This document shows, piece after piece, positions 1 to 60,472 of a stretch of 64,000 bases of DNA. Where the stretch lies: the NCBI GenBank assembly GCA_965237955.1, contig OZ250169.1, positions 2,432,001 through 2,496,000 of the forward strand, read 5' to 3'. Under the pieces are notes generated by a model, which was not told where the DNA came from, searched no databases, and saw only the letters and a program-made list of their open reading frames with translations. A program made the position numbers and the translations under genes. The DNA comes from Candidatus Marinacidobacterales bacterium. GTDB taxonomy: Bacteria; Acidobacteriota; Vicinamibacteria; Marinacidobacterales; SMYC01. Within the stretch, counting starts at the first letter, position 1. Every line of letters begins with the position of its first letter.

Positions 1-387
1 GATTTCGACGACGGTGAGCGTCGTCGCCGCGCCGACACCGAGGGCCAAGACCTCCTCGTTGGCGGCTTCGAAGCCGTTCAAGATTCCGTAGCGGAGCTCG
101 TGGCCTTCCCGTAGCGCTTCCTGTGCCGCGCGAGCGATGCAGTTGATGGCGATGGCCGACGCTTGACGTGCGGCGGGCGCCCCGCCGACGCCGTCGGCGA
201 CCGCGAGCACCGCGCTATCGGCTCCAGCGGCCACGATGCCGGCAGCGTCTTCGTTCGGGGAATCCTTCGCCGGAGAGCGGCTGGAGTGGAGCGCGACGAC
301 ACCGCCGCCGACAGTAAACACGGCGTCGTCGAGATGCTCTTGCTCGAAGAAGAGACGCGCCTCGTCTTTCCTGAGCTTTTCTCTCAC
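1..387 (-). CDS. PP2C-family Ser/Thr protein phosphatase (runs off window start)
   Basis: Not in the ORF track. Manual translation gives SPNEDAAG...VLAVADGVGG...AATTLTVVEI (PP2C motifs). GTG start overlaps the kinase stop (GTGA). Confidence 0.85.
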   Translation of the reverse strand, partial: MREKLRKDEARLFFEQEHLDDAVFTVGGGVVALHSSRSPAKDSPNEDAAGIVAAGADSAVLAVADGVGGAPAARQASAIAINCIARAAQEALREGHELRYGILNGFEAANEEVLALGVGAATTLTVVEI

Positions 388-1109
388 CCCCATCGAACGG
401 TTTCCAAGTGCTGGCGCAAGTGGGCGGCCGTGGGATAACGTTTCAGTATCAGCGAACGCTTGAGTCCGAGCACGATCTCCTTCACCACACGCGGTTGTTT
501 CGGGTAGAAACGCGCTCCTCCGAGCGCGTCGTAGAACATGCGGATGATCTCGCAAAGATCGTGCTGGTAGCCGTCGCGCTTGAGCGCTTGCCACTGAAAG
601 AAGTCGAGGATCTTGAGGTCGAACGTCAGGCCGTAGCGCTCGACGATGATGTTGTCGCTGTGAAGATCGCCGTGGAACTCGCGCGATCGATGAATGCACT
701 CGAGCCCGACGACGAGAGCGTGGAGGAGATGCAGTGCCGGAAAAGGTTGGAGGCGCCCTCCGGGCTGCCGCGTCAAGAAATCCGTGAGGAGCTCGCCTTC
801 GACGTACTCCGACACGAGTACGGTGATGGCGTGCTTGCGGAGCACGATAGTTTCTTCGGTGTGGTAGTGGATGACGATGGGACACGCGCGGAGGTTATGG
901 AGCTTCCGAGCGTAGGACTTGGCCGCCTTGTTGCGAACATTGCGGTGGGGAAAGAAGAGCTTCGCCGCGCGTTCGATCCCGGTGCTCTTCTCACGAATCC
1001 TGTAGACTTCGCCTTCCCAGCCAACCCCGAGGCGGGACACGACCTCGTACTTCCGCGCCAGTGTCCGCCCCGGGGCTAAATCGAACGTCTGGATATCGTT
1101 GGCTTTCAC
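384..1109 (-). CDS. Small cytoplasmic Ser/Thr (Hanks-type) protein kinase
   Basis: GVGWEGEVY Gly-loop, AAK lysine, HGDLHSDN catalytic loop, ILDFF; no TM segment. Confidence 0.85.
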   Translation of the reverse strand: MKANDIQTFDLAPGRTLARKYEVVSRLGVGWEGEVYRIREKSTGIERAAKLFFPHRNVRNKAAKSYARKLHNLRACPIVIHYHTEETIVLRKHAITVLVSEYVEGELLTDFLTRQPGGRLQPFPALHLLHALVVGLECIHRSREFHGDLHSDNIIVERYGLTFDLKILDFFQWQALKRDGYQHDLCEIIRMFYDALGGARFYPKQPRVVKEIVLGLKRSLILKRYPTAAHLRQHLETVRWG

Positions 1110-1118
1110 CCAGGTATT

Positions 1119-4100
1119 CTATCCGTTCTGTTCGACCGTCCTCGACTCGCGAAATTTATCCCGCGCGCGTCGCGCATGCGGCATGGCGACGACGCCGGCG
1201 GCGATGAGAGACGCGAACAGCGAGGGCGCCGCACTGACGTGGTAGACGCCGACGGCCAGCATGAGCAGGAGGCTGCCACCTGCAATCAGAGCGATCTGCC
1301 CGCGTTGGTGCGACTTCTCGCTCTTGGTGACGAATAGCCACCCTCCCAACCAGATGAGGCCAGTCGCGAGAAGACTCACGAGCTGCCCGAGCGCCGTTCC
1401 GGAAGCTGTGGTGTAGGGAATGGACGCAAACGCTTCGACCTCACCCTGGTTCGCGTAAAGCTTTCTGAAAGCGTAGTGCACTCCAGTTGCGGGCACGGTG
1501 ATATGGAGAGGGCCAATCACGTTCGGAGACGTCGACTGCTCCGCTAAACCACCGAGCGCCGCCCTCATCTCGTCGCCGGAAACGCGGTTGTCGGCGCTGA
1601 GGATGTCCATGTTCGTCCCCGGGCGTCCGTAGTCGAGCCCTTCGGGAAGGAACAGATCCCATCGCGACTCGGTAACGAGAATGTCGTCGCGGCAAAAGCG
1701 CGCGCACCGACCCGAGACGACGGATCGAAGGGGCTCGGGTGGCGTAGATGAGGTCCACGGGAAACCCCTCGGTGCGATTCATGATCTTAATGAGAAGCGC
1801 GTCATCCGAATCGGGGTCGTCTTCCGCTTCCGCAAGCGCTGGTTTTTCCGCCCGGCCCGCAACGAAGACCGACCACACTTCCGAGTTCTCGGGAAGCTCG
1901 ATGCGCAAGAACTGCTTGCGAGCATTCCTGACGATGAAACGAGCCGTCGTCACCGAGAGCCCGTCCCTGGTAAAGAGGGTCTTGTACTCCGCGGTGTCGA
2001 TCGCGGCTTCCTGAACATCGACGACACGGTGCCGGGTTACGCGAAGCGCCAAGCGCGGCTCGGGCTCGGCGCGGACGTATTTGAACGCGAGTAGGATCGG
2101 GTTCGTCGTTTGATGAACGAGCTGGCGCGGAAGCTCACCGACTTCGATGGGTGAAAGCTCATCCGCGACGGAAGGGACCACCTCGACGGCACTCGACGCT
2201 TCGACCGCGATCCTGCCTTGCTCCACGTCCGCGCCGCGAACGTGTACCGTCGATGCGCCGACTTCGGCCTCTCGCCTCCGAGGATACGCTCGTACGAAAG
2301 GTCGATCTTGAAGTGGCCTTCCATTTCCTGGGTGAACTCGAGCTCGATGACACGCTCGTCATCCTCACTGATGCGGTGGGTGCGGAGCGACGGCGCGCTC
2401 AAGTTCAGGAGGTTTGTGCCTTCCGGCAGAACGAGATCGAGTTGCTCGACGCTGCCCGATTTCACATGAAGCTCGATGCTGGTCGAGCCCGTCAACGTGA
2501 CGTCGCCGAGAGAGATCAAAGAGTCCACCTGGGCGTCGTAGCGTCCGGCGACCCTTTCCGGCTCGGACGCCGACACCGTCATCGCCGGCGGCGAGTCGGC
2601 GTATTTGAAAGTATGAGCGATGGTGAGCTCGATCTCGTCGCGGACGAAGCCGGGGAGCTGGTTCTCGCCGACCCGCGTGGTTTCGCCTTCGTCGGTGGGG
2701 TCGAGCGTCAAATCGTGGCTCGATAAAAGCGCGACCATACCGCGCTGGCGACCGACGTTCGGCGCCGCGAGAAGTGGAAGCGCCTCGGAATCGCCCGAAC
2801 CGAGCGATCGATCGTAGACAACGTCGAACGTGAGCTCGCCCTGAAGCTGGCGATCCAAGAAGATCTGCAAGAGCTGGGCGCCTCCCTGACGGATGACACG
2901 CCAATCCGCAATCGCCCCGGCATCTGAGTTGACTTCGTTGACTTGAACATCGCCGGGCACGATGAGCTCGAGCCGGTTCGTCTCCCCGCGTCGGACTTCA
3001 TAGAGCACGCGTGCCCGCGAAAAGAGCACGCCTTCCTCGGCATAGATGACGTGGTAGAGCGACGCGTTGGCGCGAAGCTCCCGACGCACGACTTCGGGAA
3101 CCGATTCCGACCACGTCAACGTGACCTGGTCGGTGAGCGGCACGTGGACCGTCGCGACGGTGGTGTTGCCTCGCGTGCGGCTCGTCACGTTCGTTCCCGG
3201 TTGCGCGGAGAGCTCTTTGCGCCCCGGGAGAGTGAGCTCGAAACGAGACACCGGGACTTTAGGGATCGCGAGCTCGACTCGAGGAGGTCCATCGGCTCTC
3301 ATGACCGGTGTCTGGAACGTAGCGACGACCGTGTGTACGCCCAGGCCTTTGACGAGCGTGGCGAAGTGTTTGCCGTCGATGAGGATCGACGCCTCTTTGC
3401 CGTCCACCTGCAGGTTCGTGAGCGTCACGTTGCGCGGGAGGAGGCGCAGGGTGGCGGTTTCGTCCGAGAACAGATCCACCCGAAACTCACCTCGCCACAC
3501 GATCGCGTTTCCGCTCAGCTCCCCGCGGTAGTGGGCTCGGCTGAACGAGGCGCCGCGCTTCGATGGCGTGCGCCATGAGATCTGGACGCCGCGCGTCGTC
3601 GGGATCGTGGCGTTGATGCGCGTGGTGGCACCGGATGGTGTCGTCCGGACGCCTGCGGCGGGGATGACGGCGACGTCGAGTCCCGTGCCGGGAAGGTTTC
3701 GCGCTGAGATTGATGGACGCTGCTTCCGGAAGGGGCACACCGAGGACGTAGCCGCTTTTGGACGAAGCCGCGTCCACGCGATACACGAGATGCATCGTGT
3801 AAGCGCCCTTTTGGTTCGTGGCCCACGCGAGTCCTCTTGGCGTCGCGACCAACTGAACCGGCGAACCTTGGATCGTCGCTTGGGTCACCGGAGTTCCCGC
3901 GGGGAGCACGGGAACGAGAGCCCACGCGTCCTCGAAGATTTGGATCGAGAGCGTGACCGAGACTTCCGCGCTCGCGGCCGGCTCGGTCGAGCCCACATTG
4001 ACGTTCACGCGCGCGGTCCCCAAAGCGAAGTTCACCGGGGCATGCGGGTCGTCGGGTGCTTGTGCCTGTTGGATGAGCTGCGTGTAGATCTCGAGCGGAA

Positions 4101-4209
4101 GCTGGACCTGTCCTGGCCCGTTTGGCCTGTTGGGGTTGTTCTCTTGAGCCTCGACCGGTCCTAGCCCGGCGAAGACCATCATCGTCAGGGCAAACCATAT
4201 GCGTTTCAT
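1119..4209 (-). pseudogene. Large (~1000 aa) exported, membrane-anchored repeat protein, split by about 3 frameshifts
   Basis: ORFs 3487-4209, 2037-3740, 1441-2226 and 1119-1610 join through single frameshifts. N-terminal signal peptide (MKRIWFALTMMVFAGLGPVEA), repeated beta-rich modules, three C-terminal hydrophobic helices. Confidence 0.7.
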
Positions 4210-4242
4210 TGTCCTACCTCGTTCCTGTGTCTGGGGAAAATC

Positions 4243-7200
4243 CTAAGTCAACGCTGCGGGCAAGCGTCGCTTGCTCGCACTTGCATATCGCAACGAGTCC
4301 GCAAGATAAGCGACCAGCGCGGGCTCGACGGATGAAGACAAAATGCTGACGTATTCACTGCGCATGGCGACGTCTCGAACGATCTCGCCGTCGCTCCCGA
4401 ACGGTAAGCCCGCGAGGAGCCGACGGACTTCGTCGAGCTCGTCGATGGCGCCGGAGCGGTCGCCTTGCTCGAGCTTATCGGCCGCGCCTTCGAGCACCTC
4501 GGAAAGATGAAATGCGAGATAATTCTTGAGCACGTTGGTCTCTAGCGGCCCCCTATTGATGTTGTCGATGTCGCCCGAGCTCGACCGCGGAAGAGCGAGA
4601 CTCGCTCTAGCGACGGTGTTCCGGAGCTCGGCGAGATCTTTATAGCGCACCGTGACCTCGGCGATGGGGCCGGGCCGGGCGGCGACGACGTCAAGAAGAA
4701 TCGTGTGCGCGTCGCCCGCGTAGAAGCTCGGGATCACGATCTGGATGCCGTCTTCGTCTTCACCGCGGTCGGCTTCGATGCCGAGATTGCGCGACAAGCG
4801 AAGGTCGATGCTCTTTTCCGCTTCGCGGACACGCTCGGCTTGACGCTCGTTCAGAGACACTGACCCGATCACGTCGACGAGCTTCACGCCGTCCGCGAGC
4901 TTGATGCGAAGCCTGAGCGCGCGTGCGACGACGCGGCTCGAAGCGGCGAGCTCGCGGTCGACGATGCTGTTCGCGTCTTGTGCCTGCTCGAGAAAGTAGC
5001 GCCGTCCTTGTCCGGCGAGCGCGAGCCGCTCGAGCTCACTCCGGTCGACGGAGGCACCGACACCGATGACGCTCACGGGAACGCCGCCGACGGCGCTCCG
5101 GTGTGCCAACCGGGAAAGGGCGTCGAGCTCGTCCCCGAGCTTCCGCGGTGTGACTACGAGGACGAGACTCGAGCCGAGAGGCATCGTCGGGTCGTCGCCC
5201 GCGTGGACGTGCTCGATCGCGAGACGGACGGCGCCTTCGAGGTCGTTAGACGCCTCGAGCTCGTCAAGCGCGACGCTGAGAGGTCCGTGGCGGAACGACT
5301 CGGGAGGAACGATCTCGCCCTTCCCAGGAAGAATCAACCGAAACCGATCGCCAAGTGCCCTCGCTTGCTGAAGCGAATCGATGAGTGCGCGTGCCGCGGC
5401 GAGGTCGTTCGGCTTCGCATCGAGGACGATACCGACGTTCATCGGCGGCCGTCTCCGGCCGTGGCTTTCCGTCGCCTGGAGGCCGACTTGGACGAGAAGC
5501 CGGCTCGGCTCGCTGATGCCGCGGCGATCCGCGTGAAGCGTGAGTGATAGCGCGCCGCGACGTGGAGCGTCGAAAGGTTGAACGACAGGGCGCGCCGCCA
5601 CGTGAGGGGCTACGAGCTGGTGCGCGTTCCGAAGGCGCATCGCAAGAAAGCGCGCTTTGGGATCGCCGGGCAAGTAGGTGTTCGCCCAGTAGCCGCGAGC
5701 GTTACGAAAGCGGAGATTGTCAATCCGCTCGCGCTCTTCGAGAAACAACCGAGCGTCCCCGTCGGTTTGGGGCGCCGCCTCGAACGCGATGCGTACGGTC
5801 ACGGTGCGCTCGTCGCGATCAGAAGCTTCATATTTCCACTGCAGGACGGCATCGATCGCCGCCTGGTCGAGTGGCCCGACGGATTCGAGGACGATCGCTC
5901 TGGTGACGTTGCCACCGCGGTCGATCAACGCGCGGAGAACGACCGTGCCGGAAGGGCGTTTCTGCTTCGCCGCCTCGGGATAGACGGCGTCGACATGCAC
6001 GAGCTTTCTCGGCTCGGCTTCCCGCTGATAATTGCCGTACTCATCCACTTCGCCGCCTGCGATGACTTGGCTCTTGAACTCGTCGACGAAATTCACCGTC
6101 ATCGTCATCACGATGGGGACCGGCACGCCGTTCAGCAACGTGGGCTCGTACTTCCACCGCTTCACAGCGTCGATTGCGGACTGATCTAGAAGCGGGATCG
6201 AGCGCAGCACGCGAACGTTTGTGACGTTCCCGGCCGGATCGATGATGGCCTCGAGGATCACGATTCCCTGAACCCGCGCCTGCTTGGCGATATCGGGATA
6301 GACAGGTTGCTGATCTCTGACTTTGTTCGGTGGTCGAATGTTTCCACCGACGCGAACTGGCTCTTGCTTCGTAGGCGGTGCGTTTGGCAGACCCACTTCG
6401 TCTTCATCTGCGGGATCAGCCTCCCACACCAGTGCGTCAATCCCCAAGGGCGCGTGCTCGTTCGCTACGATTTCGCTTTCGTCGACGCTCGACGAAGGCG
6501 GTGCTTGAGCACGCGGAGAAGCTTGTGAGCGGCCCGCGGTCCGCGATGCGCGATCTTGCGCTCGCGCGTCCTCGAGCACCGGCTCGGCCGCGGCCGGCGT
6601 CCTCGCGACTCGATTGCCAGAAACGGCCCCGCTCTTGGCGAAACGCCAGCCCGCCTCATTGTCTTTCTTGAGACTCCCGTTCTTGTTCTCTGGCAGACCG
6701 CCAACGATTCCGCCGATGATCCCACCGGGAACGCCGTCCTCGACACCTTCATGTTTCTCGAGCTCGGCGTCGTCCTCGATCGGACGGAAATAGCCCCGTT
6801 CGTTCAGCTCTCGAATGCGAGCCCTCGGCTTCGCTTGGTTTTCAACCTGCTCCTCGCGGCGGATCACTTTGTCACGCGTCGTCGCGTTTCCGTCGAGCTG
6901 ATCGTCCGCCACGTCTGCGTAATCGGAGCCGCCAACATAGCCGAGTGAGTCCAGACGTTCTTGCTCCTCGGACGAAAGCTCGTCGCCCTCGCTTTGACTC
7001 GTTTTGACGTCGACGTGGGCGGCGATTTCGTACTCGCGGCTGAACGACGAGTGCCCCATAAAAGTTACCCGTGCGGCGACGAACGCGATCGTGGCGGCCG
7101 CGGCTAGACCCATCGCCCAGTAGAGCGTTCGGTGGGAAGCCGCCTTGGCGGACAGCTCGGGGCGTGCGAGGAGTTTCTCGACGATGTCATCGGAGGCGTC

Positions 7201-7362
7201 ATGAGTCACGAGTCCACCCAGCTCACTCTCCACGGCCAGAAGGTTCCTCAAAAATCGCGCGCACCCGGTACACTCGCTCAGGTGCTTTTGGAATTCTTCG
7301 TTCTCAGGCGCTTTGCCCTCGAGGGCGATCGCATTCCGAACCTCGTTACATCTCTCAGTCAT
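4243..7362 (-). CDS. Putative ZAS anti-sigma factor fused to two TonB C-terminal domains and a degenerate VWA/YfbK-like domain
   Basis: HLSECTGC (HxxxCxxC), TM helix, GVPGGIIGGIVGGLP linker, PVYPDIAKQARVQGIVILEAIID and AVYPEAAKQKRPSGTVVLRALID TonB_C repeats, PPMNVGIVLD...VSVIGVG...LERLALAGQGRRYF VWA-like region. Confidence 0.8.
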   Translation of the reverse strand: MTERCNEVRNAIALEGKAPENEEFQKHLSECTGCARFLRNLLAVESELGGLVTHDASDDIVEKLLARPELSAKAASHRTLYWAMGLAAAATIAFVAARVTFMGHSSFSREYEIAAHVDVKTSQSEGDELSSEEQERLDSLGYVGGSDYADVADDQLDGNATTRDKVIRREEQVENQAKPRARIRELNERGYFRPIEDDAELEKHEGVEDGVPGGIIGGIVGGLPENKNGSLKKDNEAGWRFAKSGAVSGNRVARTPAAAEPVLEDARAQDRASRTAGRSQASPRAQAPPSSSVDESEIVANEHAPLGIDALVWEADPADEDEVGLPNAPPTKQEPVRVGGNIRPPNKVRDQQPVYPDIAKQARVQGIVILEAIIDPAGNVTNVRVLRSIPLLDQSAIDAVKRWKYEPTLLNGVPVPIVMTMTVNFVDEFKSQVIAGGEVDEYGNYQREAEPRKLVHVDAVYPEAAKQKRPSGTVVLRALIDRGGNVTRAIVLESVGPLDQAAIDAVLQWKYEASDRDERTVTVRIAFEAAPQTDGDARLFLEERERIDNLRFRNARGYWANTYLPGDPKARFLAMRLRNAHQLVAPHVAARPVVQPFDAPRRGALSLTLHADRRGISEPSRLLVQVGLQATESHGRRRPPMNVGIVLDAKPNDLAAARALIDSLQQARALGDRFRLILPGKGEIVPPESFRHGPLSVALDELEASNDLEGAVRLAIEHVHAGDDPTMPLGSSLVLVVTPRKLGDELDALSRLAHRSAVGGVPVSVIGVGASVDRSELERLALAGQGRRYFLEQAQDANSIVDRELAASSRVVARALRLRIKLADGVKLVDVIGSVSLNERQAERVREAEKSIDLRLSRNLGIEADRGEDEDGIQIVIPSFYAGDAHTILLDVVAARPGPIAEVTVRYKDLAELRNTVARASLALPRSSSGDIDNINRGPLETNVLKNYLAFHLSEVLEGAADKLEQGDRSGAIDELDEVRRLLAGLPFGSDGEIVRDVAMRSEYVSILSSSVEPALVAYLADSLRYASASKRRLPAALT

Positions 7363-7957
7363 GGCTCACTCTCGTGCGTCGCTCGTAGCTCTCCACCAGG
7401 CGCATGCGCGCGCGCCTCACGTGGGTCTTCACCGTGTTGATGGGCATATCGAGGATGGACGCAATGTCTTTCAGGGGTAGGTTCTCGATCGTTGCGAGGA
7501 TCAGCACCTCGCGTTCCGGCATCGGAAGCGCTTGGATCGCTCGCTCGAGCCAGGCCTTTGTCGGTTGCGCGGACGCTAACGATTAAGCGTCCGGCGCGCC
7601 GTCTTTGATGTCTGGGACGTCTGCACTCGCCGGCTCCCAAACAATGTAGCTGCGCAGTTTTTGCTTGCGCAGATACGTTCTTACGGTGTTGGCCACCACG
7701 GTAAAAAGCCAAGGGTGCAGGGGGCGTGCGTTATCGTATTGATCGGCGCGTTGGTGGATCTTGAGGAAGATCTCTTGAAAGAGGTCGTCGCGATCGGCTT
7801 CGGCAATGCCGCAGCGCACGAGATAGCCGAACACCGGCCGGCGGTAACGCTCGACCAGCTGCGAGAACGCGTCGCGGTCACCTTCTCGGTGCGCGACGAG
7901 CAGCCGCTCCGTTGGTTCGGGAACCACTACGATCTCCATCCGGGCTAACCCTTCCAT
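7355..7957 (-). pseudogene. ECF sigma-70 factor with one in-frame TAA (7583-7585) between regions 2 and 4
   Basis: Region 2 (AFSQLVERY...DDLFQEIFLK...WLFTVVAN), then the same frame continues after TAA with region 4 (ALPMPEREVLIL...LKDIASILDMPINTVKTHVRRAR) to TGA at 7355, overlapping the anti-sigma start. Confidence 0.85.
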
Positions 7958-8080
7958 ACCCCTTCATACTAGCGGACCGAGGAAAAGTTCCGAAAAATTC
8001 GCGTGCGGGGCCAACAACTGCTGCTAGACATCTGTTTCTATCTACTTATGTCTGTTCAGTTTGATCAGATTCCTGATCCC

Positions 8081-8109
8081 TTGACATACTCCCAACATCC
8101 ACCTATACT
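8081..8109 (+). promoter_or_regulatory. Sigma-70 promoter of tnpB
   Basis: TTGACA-N17-TATACT ending 9 bp before the GTG start. Confidence 0.7.
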
Positions 8110-8118
8110 CGTGATCTC

Positions 8119-9303
8119 GTGAAAGCGCTGCACTGCATACGCCCAACGACGCTCAGCCACAAGATTCAGCTCGATCCTACACCGCAACAAGAAGTCTACC
8201 TGCGGCGCGCCTGTGGTGTTGCTCGCTTCGCGTGGAATTGGGCTCTCGAGCGCTGGCGCCATGAATACGAAGCGGGCGGCCAACCCTCGGGATTGGCTCT
8301 CAAGAAACAGTTCAACGCCATCAAGGGCGAGCATTTCCCGTGGGTTTATGAAGTGACGAAGTACGCAGCCCAGCAACCGTTTCTTCATCTCCAGTCGGCG
8401 TTCCGGAACTTTTTCGCCAAGAGGGCCCGCTATCCACGGTTCAAGAAGGGGGTGCACGACAGTTTCTATGTCGGCAACGATCACGTGAAGCTCGCCGGCA
8501 AGCGCGTTTGGATTCCGAAGCTTGGGTGGGTACGGATGCGGGAGGAGCTTCGGTTTCGAGGCAAGCTGGTCTCGGCGGTCGTTTCTCGAACGGCAGACAC
8601 GTGGTTTGTGAGCCTATCGGTAGAGCTCGAGGAGACGCCTGAGCGTTGCGAGAGCCAAGCAGTGGTGGGTGTGGACTTGGGTGTTATCCGGCTGGCAACG
8701 TTGTCCACTGGGGAGCAGATCGCGGGACCGAAGCCGCTGAGACGAGAGCTTTCCAAGCTGAGGCGCTTGTCTCGGCGCGTGTCGCGCACACAGAAGGGGT
8801 CCAACAACCGCGAGAAAGCTCGTGTGGCTCTGGCGCGGCTACACTACCGAATCCGCTGCGTTCGCCAAGACGCACTGCACAAACTCACGACCTACTTGAC
8901 GAAAAACTATGCGGGCATAGCGATCGAGGATCTGAACGTGAAGGGCATGTTGGCGAATCGGCGTCTGGCGCGAGCGATTGCGGACATGGGCTTTCACGAG
9001 TTTCGCCGCCAGCTCCAGTACAAGGCGGAGCTTCGCGGCAATCACATCGAGGTATGCGACCGTTGGTTCGCGTCTTCGAAAACGTGCTGTGAGTGCGGTG
9101 TGCTGAATAAAGATCTGACTTTGGCAGAGCGTCAGTTTCGATGCGAGGAGTGTGGTTCGGAAAGAGATCGCGACTTGAACGCAGCGCTGAATCTTTTTAG
9201 TACGGTGAGCTCCACCGGACCTCAAGCCTGTGGAGAGGAGCGCTCTGGCTTCGGTATACGCCGAAGTGAAACGTTCCTCTATGAAGCAGGAACCTGGGCT
9301 TGA
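8119..9303 (+). CDS. tnpB: RNA-guided endonuclease TnpB
   Basis: N-terminal HTH_OrfB (HKIQLDPTPQQ...ARFAWNWAL), RuvC GVDLG / IEDLNV / DRDLNAA, zinc finger CCEC...CEEC. Confidence 0.95.
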   Translation: MKALHCIRPTTLSHKIQLDPTPQQEVYLRRACGVARFAWNWALERWRHEYEAGGQPSGLALKKQFNAIKGEHFPWVYEVTKYAAQQPFLHLQSAFRNFFAKRARYPRFKKGVHDSFYVGNDHVKLAGKRVWIPKLGWVRMREELRFRGKLVSAVVSRTADTWFVSLSVELEETPERCESQAVVGVDLGVIRLATLSTGEQIAGPKPLRRELSKLRRLSRRVSRTQKGSNNREKARVALARLHYRIRCVRQDALHKLTTYLTKNYAGIAIEDLNVKGMLANRRLARAIADMGFHEFRRQLQYKAELRGNHIEVCDRWFASSKTCCECGVLNKDLTLAERQFRCEECGSERDRDLNAALNLFSTVSSTGPQACGEERSGFGIRRSETFLYEAGTWA

Positions 9304-9334
9304 TCGGATTTGATCAGGTTTTGGAGAGCGGATT

Positions 9335-9713: not shown

Positions 9714-10526
9714 ATGACGGAGCTTCGAGACGCGCACGTCGTCATCACCGGCGCCGCCAGTGGCCTCGGCCGGCGCATGGCACTCGGCGTCGCGCAACGA
9801 GGCGGTACGCTTTCCCTTTGGGACGTGAACGGGGCGGGCCTCGACGCGGTGGTCGCCGAGGTCACAAGCCTCGGTGGGCGAGCCCAACCGGTGGTCTGCG
9901 ACATTTCCGATCGAGGGGCGGTCTATTCCGCGGCGGCCGGTATCGCCGATCCCGTCGATGTCCTCATCAATAACGCCGGCGTCGTGAATGGAAAGAGCCT
10001 TCTCGAGATTCCGGACGAGCAGATCGAAAGAAGCCTCCAGATCAACACCCATTCGCTTTTCTGGATGACCAAGGCGTTTCTCCCGGCGATGATCGAGCGC
10101 AACCGGGGCCATATCGTCACCATTGCTTCGGCCGCAGGCCTCATCGGCGTCCCTCGCCTGACGGACTATTGCGCCAGCAAGTTCGCCGCGGTGGGGCTCG
10201 ATGAATCCCTTCGAGTCGAGCTGAGAAAACGAGCGCCTGGCGTCCGGACGACCGTCGTCTGTCCCTACTACATCGACACCGGCATGTTCGACGGGGTGAA
10301 GACGCGCTTCTCGTTCTTGCTACCCATCCTGAAGGAGGAGAAGGTCGCCGACAAGATCTTGAAAGCTGTGGAGCGCGATCGACCGCGGCTTCAGATGCCG
10401 GCACTGGTCCACAGTATTCCGCTGCTACGATTGTTTCCGGTCCACTTATTTGATGCGATAGCCAGGTTTATGGGAATTAGCGCTTCGACGGACGATTTCG
10501 TAGGCCGACACAAGGATTCGCCATAG
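9714..10526 (+). CDS. Short-chain dehydrogenase/reductase
   Basis: TGAASGLG, NNAG and YCASK motifs. Confidence 0.92.
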   Translation: MTELRDAHVVITGAASGLGRRMALGVAQRGGTLSLWDVNGAGLDAVVAEVTSLGGRAQPVVCDISDRGAVYSAAAGIADPVDVLINNAGVVNGKSLLEIPDEQIERSLQINTHSLFWMTKAFLPAMIERNRGHIVTIASAAGLIGVPRLTDYCASKFAAVGLDESLRVELRKRAPGVRTTVVCPYYIDTGMFDGVKTRFSFLLPILKEEKVADKILKAVERDRPRLQMPALVHSIPLLRLFPVHLFDAIARFMGISASTDDFVGRHKDSP

Positions 10527-10576
10527 GTTTGTTCTGCCCACCTGTTTGACTGGGTTGGCTGTGTGGGGTTAAGATC

Positions 10577-10590
10577 TGATCATGCGGTCA
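10577..10590. promoter_or_regulatory. Possible TetR operator overlapping the tetR start codon
   Basis: Imperfect palindrome TGATC-N4-GGTCA. Confidence 0.3.
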
Positions 10591-11217
10591 AATCCTAAGC
10601 CTGTTAGCCAGAAAAAGCTCAGCTTCATCGAGGAAGCGCGCCGCCGCCAGATCGTCGAAACGGCCATCCAAACGATTGCCACTCAAGGGTTTTCCCAAGC
10701 CTCGCTTGCGGAGATTGCCCGGAAGGCCGGGATCAGCAAAGGGGTCATTTCGTACCATTTCGCGGGCAAAGACGAGCTCGTCGAAGAAATCCTGAGAAGC
10801 TTGCTGCACCAGCCAGCCGAGTTCATCAAAGAACGGGTGGGCCGCAATGAGACGGCACTCGACCAGCTTCGAGCCTACATCGAAGCGAACTTCGAGTTCA
10901 TGGAGTCCCACCGCGACAACTACGTGGCGCTCGTCGATCTATGGGGACGCCGCGGGAGCTCGGAGGAAGAAAATCGGTTCAACGCCGACGCGTACGAGCC
11001 CTCGCGACACTACCTCTCGCACATTTTCGAGGCCGGGCGCGAGCGCGGCGAGTTCCGCCACTTGCCGGTGCGTTCGACCGCGTCGTTGATTCAGGCGGCC
11101 ATCGACGGGGTGATGTTGCAGTGGGTTTTCGACGAAGAGAGCATCGACCTCGACGTGAGCCGCGCAGAAGTGTTGGAGATGATCACCCGCCACGTGTCCA
11201 AAGGAGAGCCGCGATGA
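10582..11217 (+). CDS. TetR/AcrR-family transcriptional regulator
   Basis: RRQIVETAIQTIATQGFSQASLAEIARKAGISKGVISYHFAGKDEL HTH. Confidence 0.93.
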   Translation: MRSNPKPVSQKKLSFIEEARRRQIVETAIQTIATQGFSQASLAEIARKAGISKGVISYHFAGKDELVEEILRSLLHQPAEFIKERVGRNETALDQLRAYIEANFEFMESHRDNYVALVDLWGRRGSSEEENRFNADAYEPSRHYLSHIFEAGRERGEFRHLPVRSTASLIQAAIDGVMLQWVFDEESIDLDVSRAEVLEMITRHVSKGEPR

Positions 11218-13142
11218 ACAACATCGACACCAAAGGCATGTCCGAAGGTAAGAAGGCAGCACTCGAGCTGACCGAGGAGTCGCGCGAAGGCTTTTTGGAC
11301 TACCCGACGTTCGCCGGCGCTCTGTTCATGGGTGATCTTCCTGTCGAGCTGGTCCATCCCTATCCGGAAGAGGATACCGATCGTGATGCCCGTGGCGAAG
11401 CGTTTCTGACGCAGCTCGAATCGTTCCTGAAGGAGCACGTCGACCCGGATCAAATCGATGTCGATGGAGAAATCCCGGAAAACGTTATCGAGGGGCTCGC
11501 GGCTATCGGTGCGTTCGGGATCAAGATCCCGCGTGAATACGGCGGTCTCGGTTTGTCGCAACAGCTGTATACGCGAGCGGCTGTTCTCGTGGGAAGCTAC
11601 TGCGGAAGCATCTCCGCGTTGCTGTCGGCGCATCAATCCATCGGTGTGCCCCAGCCGCTCCTTCTTTTCGGCACCGAAGAGCAGAAGCAAAAGTTTCTAC
11701 CGCGGATCGCGGGCGGAGAGATCACGGCGTTCGCGCTGACAGAGACGGGTGTTGGCTCGGATCCCGCACGCATGGAGACGCGCGCCGAGCCCACCGAGGA
11801 CGGCAAACACTACATTATTAATGGGGAGAAGTTATGGTGCACGAACGGCACCCGGGCAGGACTTCTCGTCGTCATGGCCAAGACACCGGCTCGCGTCGCG
11901 GGCGGCCGCGATCGGGTCACCGCGTTCGTCGTCGACACGAAAACCCCGGGCGTCGAAGTCACGCACCGCTGCCAGTTCATGGGATTGAGAGCGCTTTTCA
12001 ATGCCGTCATCCGTTTCACCGACGTTAAAGTTCCGGCCGAGAACATCATCGCCGCCGAGGGCAAGGGACTTCGCGTCGCGCTCACGACGCTCAACACCGG
12101 TCGTATCACCCTGCCGGCGATGTGCGTCGGGCTCTCGAAGCGAGCGCTTCAAATGGCGCGAGAATGGGCCAACGAGCGCGAGCAGTGGGGCGCACCCATC
12201 GGAAAACACGCCGCTGTCGCCGACAAGATTGCGCGTATCGCCTCGACGGTGTTCGCCATGGAGTCCATGACGTACCTGACGTCGGCGCTCGTCGATCGCA
12301 AGAAGACCGATATCCGCGTCGAAGCCGCGATGGCGAAGATGTTCGGGACCGAGGCAGCGTGGACCATCGTGGACGACACCATGCAGATTCTCGGAGGTCG
12401 CGGCTTCGAGACGGCGCAATCCATCGAGGCCCGCGGAGAAACGCCCCGGCCGATCGAGCGCGGAATGCGAGACTCCCGCATCAACCGCATCTTCGAAGGC
12501 TCGACCGAGATCATGCAGCTTTTCATCGCTCGTGAAGCGCTGGACCCGCACCTGAGAGTTGCCGGAGAGGTCATGAACTCGACGCTTCCGACGTCCCGGC
12601 GTCTCCGCGCCGCGATCCGCGCCGGGTGGTTCTACCTGAGGTGGTATCCGAAGCAGTGGCTTCCGGCGACGGCAAAAACCTCGGGCATGGACCCGGCGCT
12701 CAAAAAGCACGTCCGCTACGCCGCGCGGCAGAGCAAGAAACTGGCTCGCAAGATGTTCCACGCGATGGCCATGAACGGCCCCAAGCTCGAGCGCGAGCAG
12801 ATGCTTCTCGCGCGCTTCGTCGACATCGGGACCGAGCTCTTCGCCCAGACCGCCTCAGCCACGAGAGCGCAGGCTCTCGTCGAGCACGGCCAAGATCGCA
12901 AGGAGATTCTGGCCCTCGTCGACCACTTCTGCGCCGAATCGCGCCTCCGTATCGACCGCGCGTTCCGCGGCATCCGCACCAACAACGACCACATGGGCTA
13001 CCGCCTCGCCCAAAACGTCCTGAAAGGCGGCTCCGACTGGCTCTTCGACGGCATCGTCGGACAGACGTCCGAGGGCAACGACGAGTCGGAGTTCACCCTC
13101 GAACCGCAACTCGAGCCCGATCTCGAAGAGGTCTCGAGCTGA
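11214..13142 (+). CDS. Acyl-CoA dehydrogenase (long, VLCAD/ACAD9-like)
   Basis: AFALTETGVGSD, INGEKLWCTNG, MQILGGRG, RIFEGSTEI. ATG at 11214 overlaps the tetR stop. Confidence 0.92.
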   Translation: MNNIDTKGMSEGKKAALELTEESREGFLDYPTFAGALFMGDLPVELVHPYPEEDTDRDARGEAFLTQLESFLKEHVDPDQIDVDGEIPENVIEGLAAIGAFGIKIPREYGGLGLSQQLYTRAAVLVGSYCGSISALLSAHQSIGVPQPLLLFGTEEQKQKFLPRIAGGEITAFALTETGVGSDPARMETRAEPTEDGKHYIINGEKLWCTNGTRAGLLVVMAKTPARVAGGRDRVTAFVVDTKTPGVEVTHRCQFMGLRALFNAVIRFTDVKVPAENIIAAEGKGLRVALTTLNTGRITLPAMCVGLSKRALQMAREWANEREQWGAPIGKHAAVADKIARIASTVFAMESMTYLTSALVDRKKTDIRVEAAMAKMFGTEAAWTIVDDTMQILGGRGFETAQSIEARGETPRPIERGMRDSRINRIFEGSTEIMQLFIAREALDPHLRVAGEVMNSTLPTSRRLRAAIRAGWFYLRWYPKQWLPATAKTSGMDPALKKHVRYAARQSKKLARKMFHAMAMNGPKLEREQMLLARFVDIGTELFAQTASATRAQALVEHGQDRKEILALVDHFCAESRLRIDRAFRGIRTNNDHMGYRLAQNVLKGGSDWLFDGIVGQTSEGNDESEFTLEPQLEPDLEEVSS

Positions 13143-54502: not shown

Positions 54503-55876
54503 ATGTCTGTACACAGGTCGAAAAAGGGACTCGATCTTCCGATTCTCGGCGAGCCTGCGCGCGGCATCGAAGACCACGATGCACCGCACCGCGTAGCCGT
54601 CCTCGGCGCCGACTACCCCGGCCTCCGCCCCACGATGCACGTGAAAGTAGGCGATGACGTTCGCCGCGGTCAACTCCTCATCGAAGACAAGAAGTTGCCC
54701 GGGGTGCGGTTCACGTCGCCGGGCTCCGGCAAGGTCGTGGCGGTGCATCGCGGCGAGCGGCGGGCCTTCCTCTCGCTCGTCATCGAGCTGTCGAGCGCAG
54801 ATAAGACCGGGCGCGTCGGCGCAGCGGATCAAGTCTCCTTCAGCTCGTTCTCGGGAAGCCATCCCAATACGCTGACGCGCGACGACGTGCGCGCGCTCCT
54901 CGTGGAATCCGGTCAGTGGACGGCACTGCGCGCCAGGCCATTCTCTCGCGTGGCGAACCCGGCCACGACGCCGCATTCGATCTTCGTCACCGCGATGGAC
55001 ACGAACCCGCTCGCGCCTCACGTCGAGGACGTTCTCGAAGGGCGTCAGGTTGATTTCGAGCGCGGCCTCATGGTGCTCACCAAGCTCACCGAGGGCCCGG
55101 TGTATGTGTGCACGGCAGACGAGTCCAGCCCTCCTGTGCCCGAGCCCTGTCGCCGCGAAGTCTTCGAAGGGCCACATCCCGCCGGCACCGCCGGCTACCA
55201 CATCCACCGGCTCGACGCCGTCGATCGCAACAAGGTCGTGTGGCACATCAACTACCAGGACGTTCTGGCGGTCGGAGCGCTCTTCGACAAAGGGGAGCTG
55301 CATCTGGAGCGGGTCCTTGCCCTGGCCGGACCCGCGGTCACAAGGCCGCGGCAAATCCGATCGCGTGTCGGCGCGTCGCTCGACGACATGGTCGAAGGTG
55401 AGCTCGCCGCGGGCGAGAACCGCGTCGTCTCGGGCTCGGTGCTCTCGGGGCGAAAGGCCATGGGCGACGAGCTCGGATACCTCGGCCGCTATCACCTGCA
55501 AGTCTCCGTCATCCGCGAAGGACGCGAGCGCGAGTTTCTCGGGTGGCTCGCCCCCGGCGCCAATGTGTTTTCGGTCAAGCGGGCATTTCTATCGACGCTC
55601 TTGCCCGGCAAGAAGTTCGCGTTCTCGACGTCGACGAACGGCTCAACCCGAGCGATCGTTCCCATCGGCTCTTATGAGAAAGTGATGCCGATGGACATTC
55701 TGCCGACGTTTCTCCTCCGAGCCCTCGTCATGGGTGATGTGGAACGCGCCGAGCGGCTCGGCTGTCTCGAGCTCGACGAAGAAGACGTAGCACTTTGTAG
55801 CTTCGTGTGTCCCGGCAAGGTCGACTACGGCGTGCGTCTGCGCAACGCGCTCACTATTATCGAGAAAGAGGGCTAA
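54503..55876 (+). CDS. nqrA: Na+-translocating NADH:quinone oxidoreductase subunit A
   Basis: [49 protein letters not shown]. Confidence 0.96.
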
Positions 55877-55879
55877 GGC

Positions 55880-57103
55880 TTGACGCGTTTTCTCAGAGCT
55901 CTTCTCAAAAAGCAAGAGAAGCTCTTCTCCGGAAAGCTCGAACGTCTCTATCCGCTTCACGAAGCGGGCGATACCTTCTTGTTCACACCGGGAGACGTCA
56001 CCAAGAACCCGTCGCATGTCCGGGATGCGCTCGATCTCAAGCGCACCATGATCGTCGTCGTCATAGCACTCGCCGGGTGCATTTTCATGGCGTGCTACAA
56101 CACCGGCTATCAAGCGAACCTGGCCATTGCGACCGGCGCGGCGGCGCTCGACACCTGGCGCACCGCGCTCATGGCGACGATGGGCTTGCCGTTCGACCCG
56201 GCGAGTTTTCTCGCGTGCTTCGTTCATGGCGCGCTCTACTACGTACCGGTGTTGATAGTGACGCTCGCGGTGGGTGGATTGTGGGAAGCCCTCTTCGCGG
56301 TCGTCCGTCGCCACGAGATCAACGAAGGTTTCCTGGTCACGTGGATGCTTTTCCCACTCATCTTGCCGCCGACCGTGCCGCTTTGGCAGGTAGCGCTCGG
56401 GATAACGTTCGGCGTCGTCGTCGGGAAGGAAGTTTTCGGAGGAACCGGGTACAACATCCTCAACCCGGCGTTGGTCGCACGGGCGTTCGTGTTCTTCGCC
56501 TATCCCGCCCAGCTTTCAGGTGACAAGGTGTGGATCGCCGCGGCGACTTCGACCGATGGCGTTAGTGGCGCCACCTGGCTCGCGAGTGCGGCGCTCGAAG
56601 GCCAGGCGGCGGTCGATGCGGGCGTCACCTGGTGGCAAGCGTTCGTAGGTCTCGTCCCCGGCTCGATGGGCGAGACCTCGGCGCTCGCATGTCTCGCGGG
56701 GGCGTTCCTGCTCGTCATCACCGGCATCGGCTCGTGGCGCATTGTCGCGAGCGTGGCCGTTGGCACCATCGCCGCGGCTTCCCTTCTGAACGCAGTGGGC
56801 TCGACGACGAATCCATTTTTCGACGTGCCCTTTTGGTGGCATTTCGTGCTCGGAGGGTGGGCGTTTGGTACTGTCTATATGGCGACCGAGCCGGTGACGT
56901 CACCCGGCACGAATTCCGGGCGTGTGATTTACGGGTTTCTCATCGGCGTGCTCGTGGTGTTGATCCGCGTCGTGAACCCGGCCTATCTCGAGGGCATGAT
57001 GCTTGCGATCCTGTTCATGAACGTCTTTGCCCCAGTGATCGACCATTTCGCGATTGTCGCAAACGTCAAGCGCCGCCAGGCTCGCTACGCTAACATTCAT
57101 TAG
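55880..57103 (+). CDS. nqrB: Na+-NQR subunit B
   Basis: [23 protein letters not shown] site [15 protein letters not shown]. Confidence 0.96.
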
Positions 57104-57114
57104 AGGGTTGGCCT

Positions 57115-57897
57115 ATGCAGAGAAGCGCGTCCTATTCGATTCTGTTCGCCGCCGCCGTCTGCCTCGTGTGCGCGGTATTCGTGTCCGTATCGGCGGTGTC
57201 GCTCAAAACCCGTCAGGACGATAACGCCTTTCTCGACAAGCAGAGAAACGTCCTGGTTGCCGCGGGGCTCGCGAGCGAAGACGAAGTCCTGACGAGAGAA
57301 CAAATCCAGGAGCGGTTCGGGCCGATCGAGTCCGTCGTCGTCGATCTTCAGTCCGGAGAGGAGCGCTTCGACGTCGACCCCGAAACCTTCGATCAGAGGC
57401 AAGCGACATCCGACCCCCAGACGTCGCGAGCGATGCCCAATAACACCGCGGGCATCCAGCGGGTTCCGAATCAGGCGCTCGTGTACCGACTGGTGGAGAA
57501 CGACGAGCTCGGGCTCGTGATCCTTCCCATCGAAGGCAAAGGGCTCTGGTCGACGCTCTACGGGTTTATCGCCCTCGATGCTGATCTCGAGACCATCCGG
57601 GGCATTACGTTCTATGAGCACAAGGAAACGCCCGGACTCGGAGGCGAAGTGGACAACCCTCGATGGAAGGCGCTGTGGCCGGGCCGACGGGCATTTGGTG
57701 AAGGCAGTGAACGGACCCCGCGCATCGAGGTCATTCGAGGGCAGGCGGGGCCGCCTGCCGAGGATCCCTACCGCGTCGATGGTCTCTCCGGCGCAACGAT
57801 GACGAGCCGCGGCGTGGGACGTCTCGTTCGTTTTTGGCTCGGCGACAAGGGTTTTGCGCCCTACCTGGACACACTACGGAAAGGGAGTCGAGGCTGA
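57115..57897 (+). CDS. nqrC: Na+-NQR subunit C
   Basis: [21 protein letters not shown] site VDGLSGAT. Confidence 0.96.
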
Positions 57898-58520
57898 TGG
57901 CAAACCCGGCACGAGAAGCGTTGCTCGACCCGCTTTTCAACAACAACCCGATTGCCCTGCAGGTTCTGGGCATTTGCTCGGCCCTGGCGGTGACGACGAA
58001 GATGGACACGGCGGTGGTGATGAGCATCGCCGTGATCGCCGTCCTGACGTTCTCGAATTTCTTCGTGAGCCTGATCCGCAACCAGATCCCGACCAACATC
58101 CGCATCATTATTCAGCTCACCATCATCGCATCGCTCGTGATCGTCACCGATCAGATCCTGAAAGCGTACGTCTACGAGATTTCGAAACAGCTCTCGGTGT
58201 TCGTGGGTCTCATCATTACCAACTGCATCATCATGGGCCGGGCGGAGGCGTTTGCGATGCAGAACCCGCCGGCGCTCAGTATCGTCGATGGACTCGGTAA
58301 CGGCCTCGGCTACGCGCTCATATTAATGATGACGGCGGCTATCCGTGAAGTGTTCGGCTCGGGCAACTTCTTCGGCATCCCGGTGCTGCCGGTCGTGAGC
58401 GAGGGCGGTTGGTACACGCCGAACGGGTTACTGGTGCTATCGCCGGGAGCGTTTTTCATCATTGGGTTTTTCATCTGGGCCCTGAGAGTCTGGAAACCCG
58501 AGCAGGTCGAAGCGGAATAG
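57897..58520 (+). CDS. nqrD: Na+-NQR subunit D
   Basis: [37 protein letters not shown]. Confidence 0.96.
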
Positions 58521-58538
58521 AGCCATGCGATCGAATGT

Positions 58539-58569
58539 AGCCATCGGCCATCAGCCATCAGCCATCAGC
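58539..58569. repeat. Heptamer tandem repeat (RGCCATC)x4
   Basis: agccatc-ggccatc-agccatc-agccatc between nqrD and nqrE. Confidence 0.85.
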
Positions 58570-58586
58570 GCGGGGAGGATTCATTA

Positions 58587-59204
58587 ATGCTGGAAAGCTA
58601 TTTGAATCTTGCAGTGAAGGCGATCTTCGTCGAGAACATGGCACTCGCTTTTTTTCTCGGCATGTGCTCGTTCGTGGCCGTCTCGCGCAAAGTCGAGACC
58701 GCCATCGGGCTCGGTAGCGCGGTCGTGTTCGTCCTGACCGTGACCGTCCCGCTCAACAATCTCGTCTACACGTATCTATTGAAACCGGGCGCGCTCGCTT
58801 GGCTCGACCCCGGCCTCGCCGATCAAGACCTGACGTTTCTCGGGTTTCTCACTTACATCGGGACGATCGCCGCGATGGTGCAAATCGTCGAGATGACGCT
58901 CGATCGGTTCTTCCCCGCACTCTACAACGCGCTCGGTGTCTTCTTGCCGCTCATCGCCGTGAACTGCGCGATCCTGGGCGCGTCGCTTTTCATGGTCGAG
59001 CGGAACTACGGCTTCGGCGAAAGCGTCGTCTTCGGTTTCGGCTCGGGTGTGGGATGGGCCCTCGCGATTGTCGCTCTTGCGGGCATTCGCGAGCGGTTGC
59101 GCTACAGCAATATTCCGGCAGGGCTCCGCGGTCTCGGGATTACCTTCCTTCTCACCGGGCTCATGGCGATGGGCTTCATGGCGTTCGCGGGAATTCAACT
59201 CTAG
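58587..59204 (+). CDS. nqrE: Na+-NQR subunit E
   Basis: [31 protein letters not shown]. Confidence 0.96.
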
Positions 59205-59207
59205 ATC

Positions 59208-60437
59208 ATGATCACAGTCGGGCTCGGGGTGTTTATGTTCACGAGCGTGATCGTGACTCTGGTCGTGGTGCTCATGCTTGCTCGTCGCGAGCTCGTTGCC
59301 ACCGGCGAGGTCACCATCACCGTGAACGACGATCCGGACAAAGCGCTGACCACGGCGGCGGGCGGAACGCTTCTGGGAACGCTTTCGGCCAATCGCATCT
59401 TCATTCCGTCGGCTTGCGGCGGGAAGGGCACCTGCGGCGTGTGCACGGTGAAAGTGCTCGATGGCGGCGGCGCGATGCTCCCTACGGAGACCAGCCACAT
59501 CAACCGCGACGAAGCACGCGAGGGCATCCGTCTATCGTGTCAGGTCAAGGTCAAGCAGGACATCAAGATCGATCTTCCGCCCGAAGTCTTCAACGTTCGG
59601 AAGTGGAAGTGCAAAGTTCGATCGAACAAGAACGTGGCGACGTTCATCAAGGAGCTCGTGCTCGAGCTTCCCGCCGGCGAAGAAGTACCGTTTCGCGCCG
59701 GTGGTTACATTCAAATCGAGCGCCCGGCGGGAACGGTCGAGTACAAGAACTTCGACATCGAAGACGAGTATCGCGACGACTGGGACAAGTTCAACCTGTG
59801 GCGCTACGTGTCGACGGCGGAACCCGGGGACGAGGTCGTCCGCGCGTTCTCCATGGCCAATTATCCCGAGGAGAAGGGGATCATCATGCTGAACATACGC
59901 ATCGCGTCGCCACCGCCGCGGATGCCCGACGTTCCGCCCGGCAAGATGTCATCGTACACCTTCGATTTGAAGCCGGGAGACGAGGTCACGATCTCGGGAC
60001 CGTACGGCGAGTTCTTCGCCAAGGACACCGATGCGGAGATGATTTATATCGGCGGCGGCGCCGGCATGGCGCCGATGCGCTCGCACATCTTCGATCTTTT
60101 CAATCGGGTTCATACGAAACGCAAGGTTTCGTTCTGGTACGGTGCGCGGAGCCTTCGTGAAGGATTCTACGACGACGACTTCAACAAGATCGCTTCCGAC
60201 AACGACAACTTCGCATGGCACCTCGCGCTTTCCGAGCCGCTTCCCGAAGACAACTGGACGGGATATAAGGGATTCATCCACCAGGTGCTCTACGATCATT
60301 ATTTGAAGGATCACGATAGCCCAGAGGACGTGGAGTACTACATCTGCGGTCCGCCCCTCATGCTCAAGGCGTGTTTCGATATGCTCGACAGCCTCGGTGT
60401 GGAGCCTGAGAACATTCTGTATGATGATTTTGGTTGA
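59208..60437 (+). CDS. nqrF: Na+-NQR subunit F
   Basis: [40 protein letters not shown]. Confidence 0.97.
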
Positions 60438-60439
60438 TG

Positions 60440-60470
60440 GGCCATCAGCCATCGGCCGTCAGCCATCAGC
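60440..60470. repeat. Heptamer tandem repeat (RGCCRTC)x4
   Basis: ggccatc-agccatc-ggccgtc-agccatc between nqrF and apbE. Confidence 0.85.
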
Positions 60471-60472
60471 GC

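Follow-up and report, generated by a model that had tools for sequence, protein, structure and literature searches.

Groups ECF226 and ECF289 of the sigma factors with extracytoplasmic function (ECF) are described as accompanied by a putative anti-sigma factor, encoded at position +1, with one transmembrane (TM) helix and a vWA domain fused to DUF3520 (PMC7826278). In the sections of that source covered here, ECF226 includes Acidobacteria and Planctomycetes and has no conserved +2 gene, self-regulation is predicted for ECF289, and the vWA-bearing anti-sigmas of both groups are given as putative, without partner or signal (Casas-Pastor et al. 2021, PMC7826278). We analyzed a comparable locus from a Candidatus Marinacidobacterales bacterium (Acidobacteriota, Vicinamibacteria), whose genome, G000, is one contig of 8.13 Mb. 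The window, i.e. the whole stretch of 64,000 nucleotides that was analyzed (G000:C1:2432001-2496000), begins with five genes on the minus strand, read in the order ECF sigma factor, anti-sigma factor, large membrane protein, kinase and PP2C phosphatase. The original prediction took all five as one system. We found that the conserved unit consists of three genes (sigma, anti-sigma and large protein), not five, and that kinase and PP2C are an independent travelling pair, which adjoins this core in one family only.

The distribution of these genes was analyzed around homologues of the large gene (the best 80 of 137 metagenome loci) and of the kinase gene (the best 80 of 102 genome loci). The C-terminal part of the anti-sigma, the vWA module, is encoded directly upstream of the large gene in 57 of the 59 loci that extend 1 kb or more in that direction. 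A sigma gene lies upstream in 26 of the 37 loci with at least 4.5 kb, and TonB_C domains are encoded there in 9 of these 37 (10 when three queries are used). Kinase matches occur at 6 of the 51 large-gene loci that extend 1.2 kb or more downstream; the match in L177 is an unrelated 30% kinase located upstream, which leaves 5. PP2C was found in 1 of 41 large-gene metagenome loci. Seen from the kinase side, PP2C is present in 52 of the 80 loci, the large gene in 7 and all five genes in 3, and five kinase-bearing genomes from other groups have no large gene. Among 60 relatives, the same family has the large gene in 15 of 18 genomes, a sister family in 5 of 8, and a third family in none of 28. Of the relatives, 19 of the 21 large-gene holders have the module, and 19 of the 20 module holders have the large gene. 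Kinase and large gene are unlinked in all five sister-family genomes which have both. The module itself is patchy: it was found in 2 of 301 genomes of the same phylum (G000 included) and in 1 of 301 of a second sample, counts that describe the genomes searched and do not establish absence.

The geometry of the five co-oriented genes in G000 was confirmed on the minus strand. The sigma gene (7355..7957) and the anti-sigma gene (4243..7362) overlap by 8 bp; 33 bp separate the latter from the large gene (1119..4209), which is followed after 9 bp by the kinase gene (384..1109). This one overlaps by 10 bp the PP2C gene, whose 5' part occupies positions 1..393 (275 aa in full, running off the window to G000:C1:2431566). 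The string is not a chance arrangement, because genome G006 (L105) has all five genes intact with the same gaps of 33 and 9 bp. Such tight spacing, the G006 copy and the kinase found in 10 of 14 family loci would suit a single trans-envelope sensor, coupled through TonB_C to force or to the proton-motive force, with both transcriptional and phosphorylation outputs. Of the 120 nearest homologues listed, 75 have TonB_C, which points the same way, as does the kinase and phosphatase control reported in archaea, in the part of the source covered, for the ArnB fold, whose architecture E. coli YfbK shares (PMC12852372). We nevertheless consider such a sensor improbable. The same 14 family loci (G004, where the gene lies at a contig edge, is omitted) contain PP2C in 6 cases and an unrelated, divergently transcribed SDR gene in 12. 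PP2C is gone from four family loci that retain the kinase, and in G009 and G013 an opposite-strand gene stands between large gene and kinase. Moreover the kinase has no TM segment whereas the vWA module lies beyond one, the sigma factor keeps its acidic motif, and the TM helix of the anti-sigma has no His. Together with the low counts at wider loci, this leaves the five-gene sensor largely refuted as a general system. The sigma, the anti-sigma and the large protein stand as a conserved unit; kinase and PP2C, whose co-conservation was to be checked by gene neighbourhood, are not syntenic outside the family.

The names given to the individual domains in the original prediction (ECF sigma, ZAS, TonB_C, VWA, kinase and PP2C) were borne out by Pfam, motif and structure; the Pfam matches in the operon are Sigma70_r2, two TonB_C, Pkinase and PP2C_2. 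The kinase is a minimal soluble kinase-fold protein of 241 aa which retains the G-loop, the AAK lysine, the HGDLHxxN loop and the Mg-binding Asp. Its nearest relatives are labelled Acidobacteriota and Ca. Marinacidobacterales, and homologues of the module Vicinamibacteria. Minimal kinases of this type (about 240 aa, no TM, HGDLHxxN) associated with PP2C are widespread, being present in Gammaproteobacteria, Planctomycetota, Nitrospinaceae and others (L009-L088).

The sigma factor (200 codons, intact in orthologues) has only a generic ECF match in NCBIfam (TIGR02937, 87 bits). Upstream of its gene we predicted an ECF-type autoregulatory promoter (7967..7999, minus strand) by motif search of upstream regions and genome-wide scoring. 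It consists of a T-rich tract, a -35 element GGAAC (7991-7987; family consensus TGAAAC), a spacer of 17 nt and a -10 element GTA (7969-7967), with 9 nt to the ATG, and the sigma transcript is likely leaderless judging from this distance. The pattern TGAAAC-N17-GTA is found upstream of 42 of 47 distinct core sigmas, compared to a mean of 1.0 and a maximum of 5 in shuffled sequences and 0 on the reverse strand. When the whole G000 genome is scored, the operon's own site reaches 29.1 and the next best 14.2. The strict pattern has three hits in the genomes of five relatives, every one immediately in front of this sigma gene; in the other two genomes, which gave no match, the sigma region is lost or split. 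Since the predicted promoter is unique in each genome tested, the regulon is likely the operon alone, i.e. autoregulation. A scan for sigma-70 promoters and terminators inside the operon gave nothing exceeding shuffles. The acidic region-2.2 motif, DRDD in this sigma, is kept in 45 of 46 sigma copies, and activation of the sigma by the kinase in the manner of ECF43 was rejected on this ground.

The anti-sigma-type protein is intact in G000 (1039 aa). From its N-terminus it comprises a ZAS motif HxxxCxxC at residues 27-34 (H27, C31, C34; positions 7284-7261), one TM helix at about residues 79-97 (about 7128-7072), a variable linker, two TonB_C domains and the vWA module (4246..5760). An N-terminal HxxxCxxC followed by a TM helix is the arrangement of class I ZAS anti-sigmas. 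Family models add little to it: zf-HC2 matches at E 0.39, and the anti-sigma model NF052375 at E 1e-4, under its cut-off. Of 59 module proteins, 35 start with ZAS and 5 with a lipobox, while the N-termini of the remaining 19 are of other kinds or truncated. By these sequences the N-terminus of the module is interchangeable, being ZAS plus TM, lipobox, or TM alone.

The TonB_C domains (129 bits in Pfam for the two in G000) are found in 18 of 54 module proteins. The first one (6083..6397) shares 91.8% DNA identity, across 306 bp, with the tonB gene of G000 and is missing from contigs of two public short-read runs, X3 and X5, where position 6082 is joined to 6398. Its sequence marks it as a recent in-frame gain from the genome's own tonB gene. 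The donor sits in a tonB-exbB-exbD-exbD-like operon, where exbB and exbD were named from reading the sequences, not from a family scan. An energised TonB requires a His in its TM segment (a Ser/His motif) and linked exbB/exbD genes. The anti-sigma has the TonB_C domain; on inspection its TM sequence contains no His, and no exbB/exbD-like gene appears in the gene lists of the window or of the displayed family loci. The best reading of TonB_C is an optional domain for passive contact rather than an energised motor, and the force or proton-motive coupling of the original prediction is unsupported.

The vWA module is the 505-aa C-terminal part of the anti-sigma, and was modelled by AlphaFold with a predicted local distance difference test (pLDDT) of 91 and a predicted template modelling score (pTM) of 0.88. 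It is composed of a beta-sandwich, a vWA domain and a helical bundle, i.e. the ArnB/VWA2/YfbK/ITIH-hybrid architecture. The top Foldseek matches are 8s05 (ArnB), 4fx5 (Catenulispora vWA), 5a8j (VWA2) and 6fpz/6fpy (ITIH1), and Sec23/24 is matched as well. Comparison with VIA gave Z 18.2 over 367 residues with 4fx5 (root mean square deviation, rmsd, 6.5) and Z 17.2 over 366 residues with 8s05 (rmsd 6.4), while residues 65-417 of the module align with ITIH1 264-569 at Z 18.1 (rmsd 4.9, 261 aligned). The adhesion site that depends on a metal ion (MIDAS) is degenerate: the first Asp is present in 50 of 52 rows and the Ser at D+2 in 2 of 52, and the strand-4 Asp is absent from the 12 commonest patterns. 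The canonical form of a vWA with MIDAS (DxSxS...T...D) is not that of the module. None of the 52 module members matches YfbK_C (DUF3520) or vWF_A at E 0.1, and a control protein from locus L254 matches both. The module profile does, however, retrieve a true YfbK-type anti-sigma (E 1.5e-14). The fold is related to that of YfbK, and the missing family matches mark divergence.

The large protein, broken in G000, has 997-1028 aa in intact orthologues. It is predicted to comprise an N-terminal signal-like segment, five beta-sandwich domains and C-terminal TM helices; its model has pLDDT 87 and pTM 0.41, hence an uncertain packing of the domains. The repeats that had been proposed in it are real, the domains D1/D2 and D3/D4 being matched by HHalign at 98.6% and 98.0%. 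No significant sequence match was found in Pfam, NCBIfam or the PDB, and the Atlas returned unnamed clusters only. The sandwich domains resemble the N-domains of M1 aminopeptidases (Z 13-14.8; best rmsd 2.5, 142 aligned). Domains 4-5 match ribophorin I at Z 14.8 with 326 residues aligned, and the rmsd of 19.1 makes this a likeness at domain level only (single domains, rmsd 2.5-3). A profile of the family retrieved 5,847 clusters (50% identity) at E 0.001 or better. In a Planctomycetota-centred sample 70 of 201 genomes have members, and in a second phylum sample 10 of 201. Distant members come as tandem giants (650-2,900 aa), mostly with no adjacent regulator. In one locus of the planctomycete phylum, L254, two distant members are preceded by an ECF sigma and a true YfbK-type anti-sigma. 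In Pfam, 14 distant members and the sandwich part of an AAA-fused homologue share no family.

Several features of this family were observed beside the main analysis. Arrays of two to four giant secreted-type members, with only weak TPR or DUF996 matches in Pfam, are found at L243, L245, L250-L256 and L259-L261. In G055 (L118:8116-14860) a homologue is fused to a MoxR-type AAA in a 1299-aa open reading frame (ORF), possibly an assembly artefact; genes for a DUF58 protein and a TgpA transglutaminase follow the fusion and a sigma-less vWA module precedes it. A near-invariant N-terminal motif, GQVQIPLxxY (A1 columns 26-43, P0002), is modelled with low confidence in the monomer, and distant members begin with a similar one. 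This segment is a candidate binding segment.

We think it probable that the three-gene core is an autoregulated ECF switch placed over a two-protein envelope module, with the kinase pair attached in one family and the copy of this strain broken. Outside the inner membrane the vWA module would bind one of the large protein's beta-sandwich domains, much like VIT on hybrid-vWA in a single ITIH chain, and the cytoplasmic ZAS would hold the sigma. Disengagement of the module, or damage to it, would lead to cleavage of the anti-sigma, as happens to class I ZAS anti-sigmas; once free, the sigma would drive transcription of its own operon, giving more of both envelope proteins. In this family kinase and PP2C would probably be co-transcribed by read-through and not be needed for the switch; in the G000 strain sigma and large protein would be non-functional.

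Several points weigh against this reading. The loci counted are related and include near-duplicates, so that the counts are not independent, and the family genomes are kin; no statistic is claimed. The kinase lies at most about 250 bp downstream of the large gene in 8 family genomes, G000 included, which fits shared transcription. The promoter pattern was picked after inspecting sequences, and the proteolytic release is inferred by analogy. The module profile matches in only 1 of 21 distant large-family loci, namely L254. The sandwich domain compared to VIT (large protein 211-365 against ITIH1 49-266) gives a moderate Z of 9.2 (rmsd 4.1, 154 aligned) for a common fold, and aminopeptidase N-domains and ribophorin I match better. 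The evidence for the lesions discussed below comes mainly from one run, X1, which is perhaps the source sample.

As the two chains together cover the layout of ITIH1, the pair can be read in a bolder way. A metal-free ArnB/ITIH-type vWA protein and a membrane-anchored VIT/ribophorin-I-like array would form a split ITIH, a receptor pair read by ZAS with a one-promoter regulon; the large protein would found an unannotated superfamily made of the 5,847 clusters, planctomycete giants included, and kinase-PP2C, brought under this promoter, would be a second output in this family. This reading, drawn from fold models, is possible and we put it forward tentatively. We regard as rather unlikely a third one, in which vWA module and large protein serve chiefly as an envelope scaffold, structural or adhesive, sigma and ZAS only setting its expression and sensing something unrelated to the partner. 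The pair is kept without a detected sigma in 11 of 37 loci, several with lipoprotein-type N-termini, the giants in the Planctomycetota-centred sample are mostly regulator-free, and the folds are similar to those of extracellular scaffold proteins, all of which would suit a scaffold. The ZAS-fused forms are nevertheless the majority (35 of 59) and tie the module physically to the sigma, and the sigma-less forms are scattered among ZAS-bearing ones in a quick tree with incomplete labels, as expected of repeated loss or swapping.

The copy of the switch operon in G000 is decaying. Among the five genes, intact ORFs are limited to anti-sigma, kinase and PP2C. Codon 125 of the sigma gene (7583-7585) is an in-frame TAA, which falls between regions 2 and 4 and removes region 4; a frameshift in this gene was considered and rejected, the lesion being a stop. 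The large gene is split into four pieces by breaks near 3697, 2271 and 1685. We checked the lesions against contigs from four public short-read runs, among which X1 is possibly the source sample. All four runs insert one base at 2271, and this break is consequently an assembly error. The X1 contigs are identical to the window over 2950-5208 and 7409-7846, and over 1441-2633 they differ solely by the gap at 2271; the TAA and the breaks at 3697 and 1685, carried by contigs with a depth of about 32-36, are for this reason present in the strain. In contigs of X3 and X5 the reading frame is kept at both of these positions. Short-read contigs thereby bear out the sigma stop and two of the large-gene frameshifts.

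That all lesions are assembly errors or recoding signals, the system being functional in the G000 strain, is highly improbable. In its favour, one of the four lesions is indeed an error, the genes for anti-sigma, kinase and PP2C are undamaged, and the promoter retains a high score. The contigs of X1, X3 and X5 speak against it, and so does the absence of any frame change in 8 other orthologous G000 genes (9 with the sigma, whose stop this check cannot detect). The operon is also damaged in other family genomes: sigma and anti-sigma are deleted in G008, insertion sequence (IS) elements split the operon in G009 and G015, and G005 has part of the module and no large gene.

Just upstream of the promoter, outside the system, an IS605-family tnpB element is inserted (8009..9330, plus strand; ORF 8119-9303), assigned by Pfam. 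Empty-site joints are found in X1 and X3, the element being polymorphic in X1 and absent in X3, and a 92% copy is present at G000:C1:4456416-4457698. Destruction of the operon promoter by this element was rejected, as about 10 bp separate it from the T-rich tract downstream. The tnpB-only element contains a near-consensus sigma-70 promoter at 8081-8109.

Beyond it, the divergent SDR, TetR and acyl-CoA dehydrogenase genes (window 9714-13142) are conserved beside the operon across the family and served as a synteny control. On the other side a convergent gene of about 170 aa (G000:C1:2430771-2431559), provisionally labelled DUF6036-like, follows PP2C, and in G001, G010 and G016 it directly follows the kinase. 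Genes at 54503-61525 of the window, judged by eye from their sequences, presumably form a Na+-NQR operon with ApbE.

With a near-obligate partner, a single sharp promoter for reporter use and natural sigma-less controls, what vWA modules sense becomes testable. The large protein opens a big family without a Pfam model. The G000 copy is itself a poor experimental subject.

The module and its partner can be compared to several known proteins. The heavy chain of ITIH1 is laid out as VIT followed by hybrid-vWA-hybrid-helices (PMC10539598, in the part covered). The module aligns with hybrid-vWA-helices and a domain of the large protein with VIT. Unlike ITIH1, the locus encodes two membrane-anchored proteins with five sandwich domains and no intact MIDAS, and the likeness consists of fold matches on separate chains. 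Domains 4-5 of the large protein resemble the two luminal domains of ribophorin I (OST1/RPN1), which are likewise followed by a TM segment; set against ribophorin I and M1 aminopeptidases, the model has no catalytic peptidase domain, identities are 7-12% and no glycosylation genes were seen adjacent. The module shares with ArnB, VWA2, the Catenulispora vWA protein, YfbK and the Sec23-24 core a beta-sandwich with an inserted vWA followed by a helical bundle. Unlike ArnB-fold proteins it is extracytoplasmic and tethered, has lost its MIDAS and has no FHA partner; the kinase here is on the opposite side of the membrane from the module, and not co-conserved with it.

An ECF sigma, a Ser/Thr-type kinase and PP2C in one string also recall the kinase-activated ECFs (ECF43, EcfP/PknT) and the Stk1/Stp1 operons. 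In ECF43, as far as the covered parts of the sources go, the acidic DAED motif is replaced by Ser/Thr and there is usually no anti-sigma (PMC8999054, PMC7826278), whereas the sigma here keeps DRDD and has a ZAS partner. Unlike Stk1, the kinase carries neither a TM nor a sensor domain, and its score is far under the Stk1 cut-off. What was taken for a dual-output system of five genes is a juxtaposition at the level of one family.

Literature searches returned no description of the three-gene unit; the supplement of PMC7826278 was seen in part, and the rest of it may affect the group assignment. The original statement that no described system is known holds for this unit and not for the pair of a sigma and a TM-vWA anti-sigma, which resembles ECF226 and ECF289. 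As in these groups, the +1 anti-sigma has one TM helix and a vWA domain. In contrast to them, as covered in that source, the module has no DUF3520 match, and in contrast to ECF289, which is restricted to Proteobacteria and has the promoter CCCAAGGA / CGTCTxA, the motif is TGAAAC-N17-GTA and the nearest relatives are labelled Acidobacteriota. ECF226 and ECF289 are on this basis the closest known systems, from which the locus is set apart by DUF3520 and, in the case of ECF289, by the promoter. The three-gene unit is a real, undescribed variant of the vWA-anti-sigma ECF systems, with a near-obligate partner.

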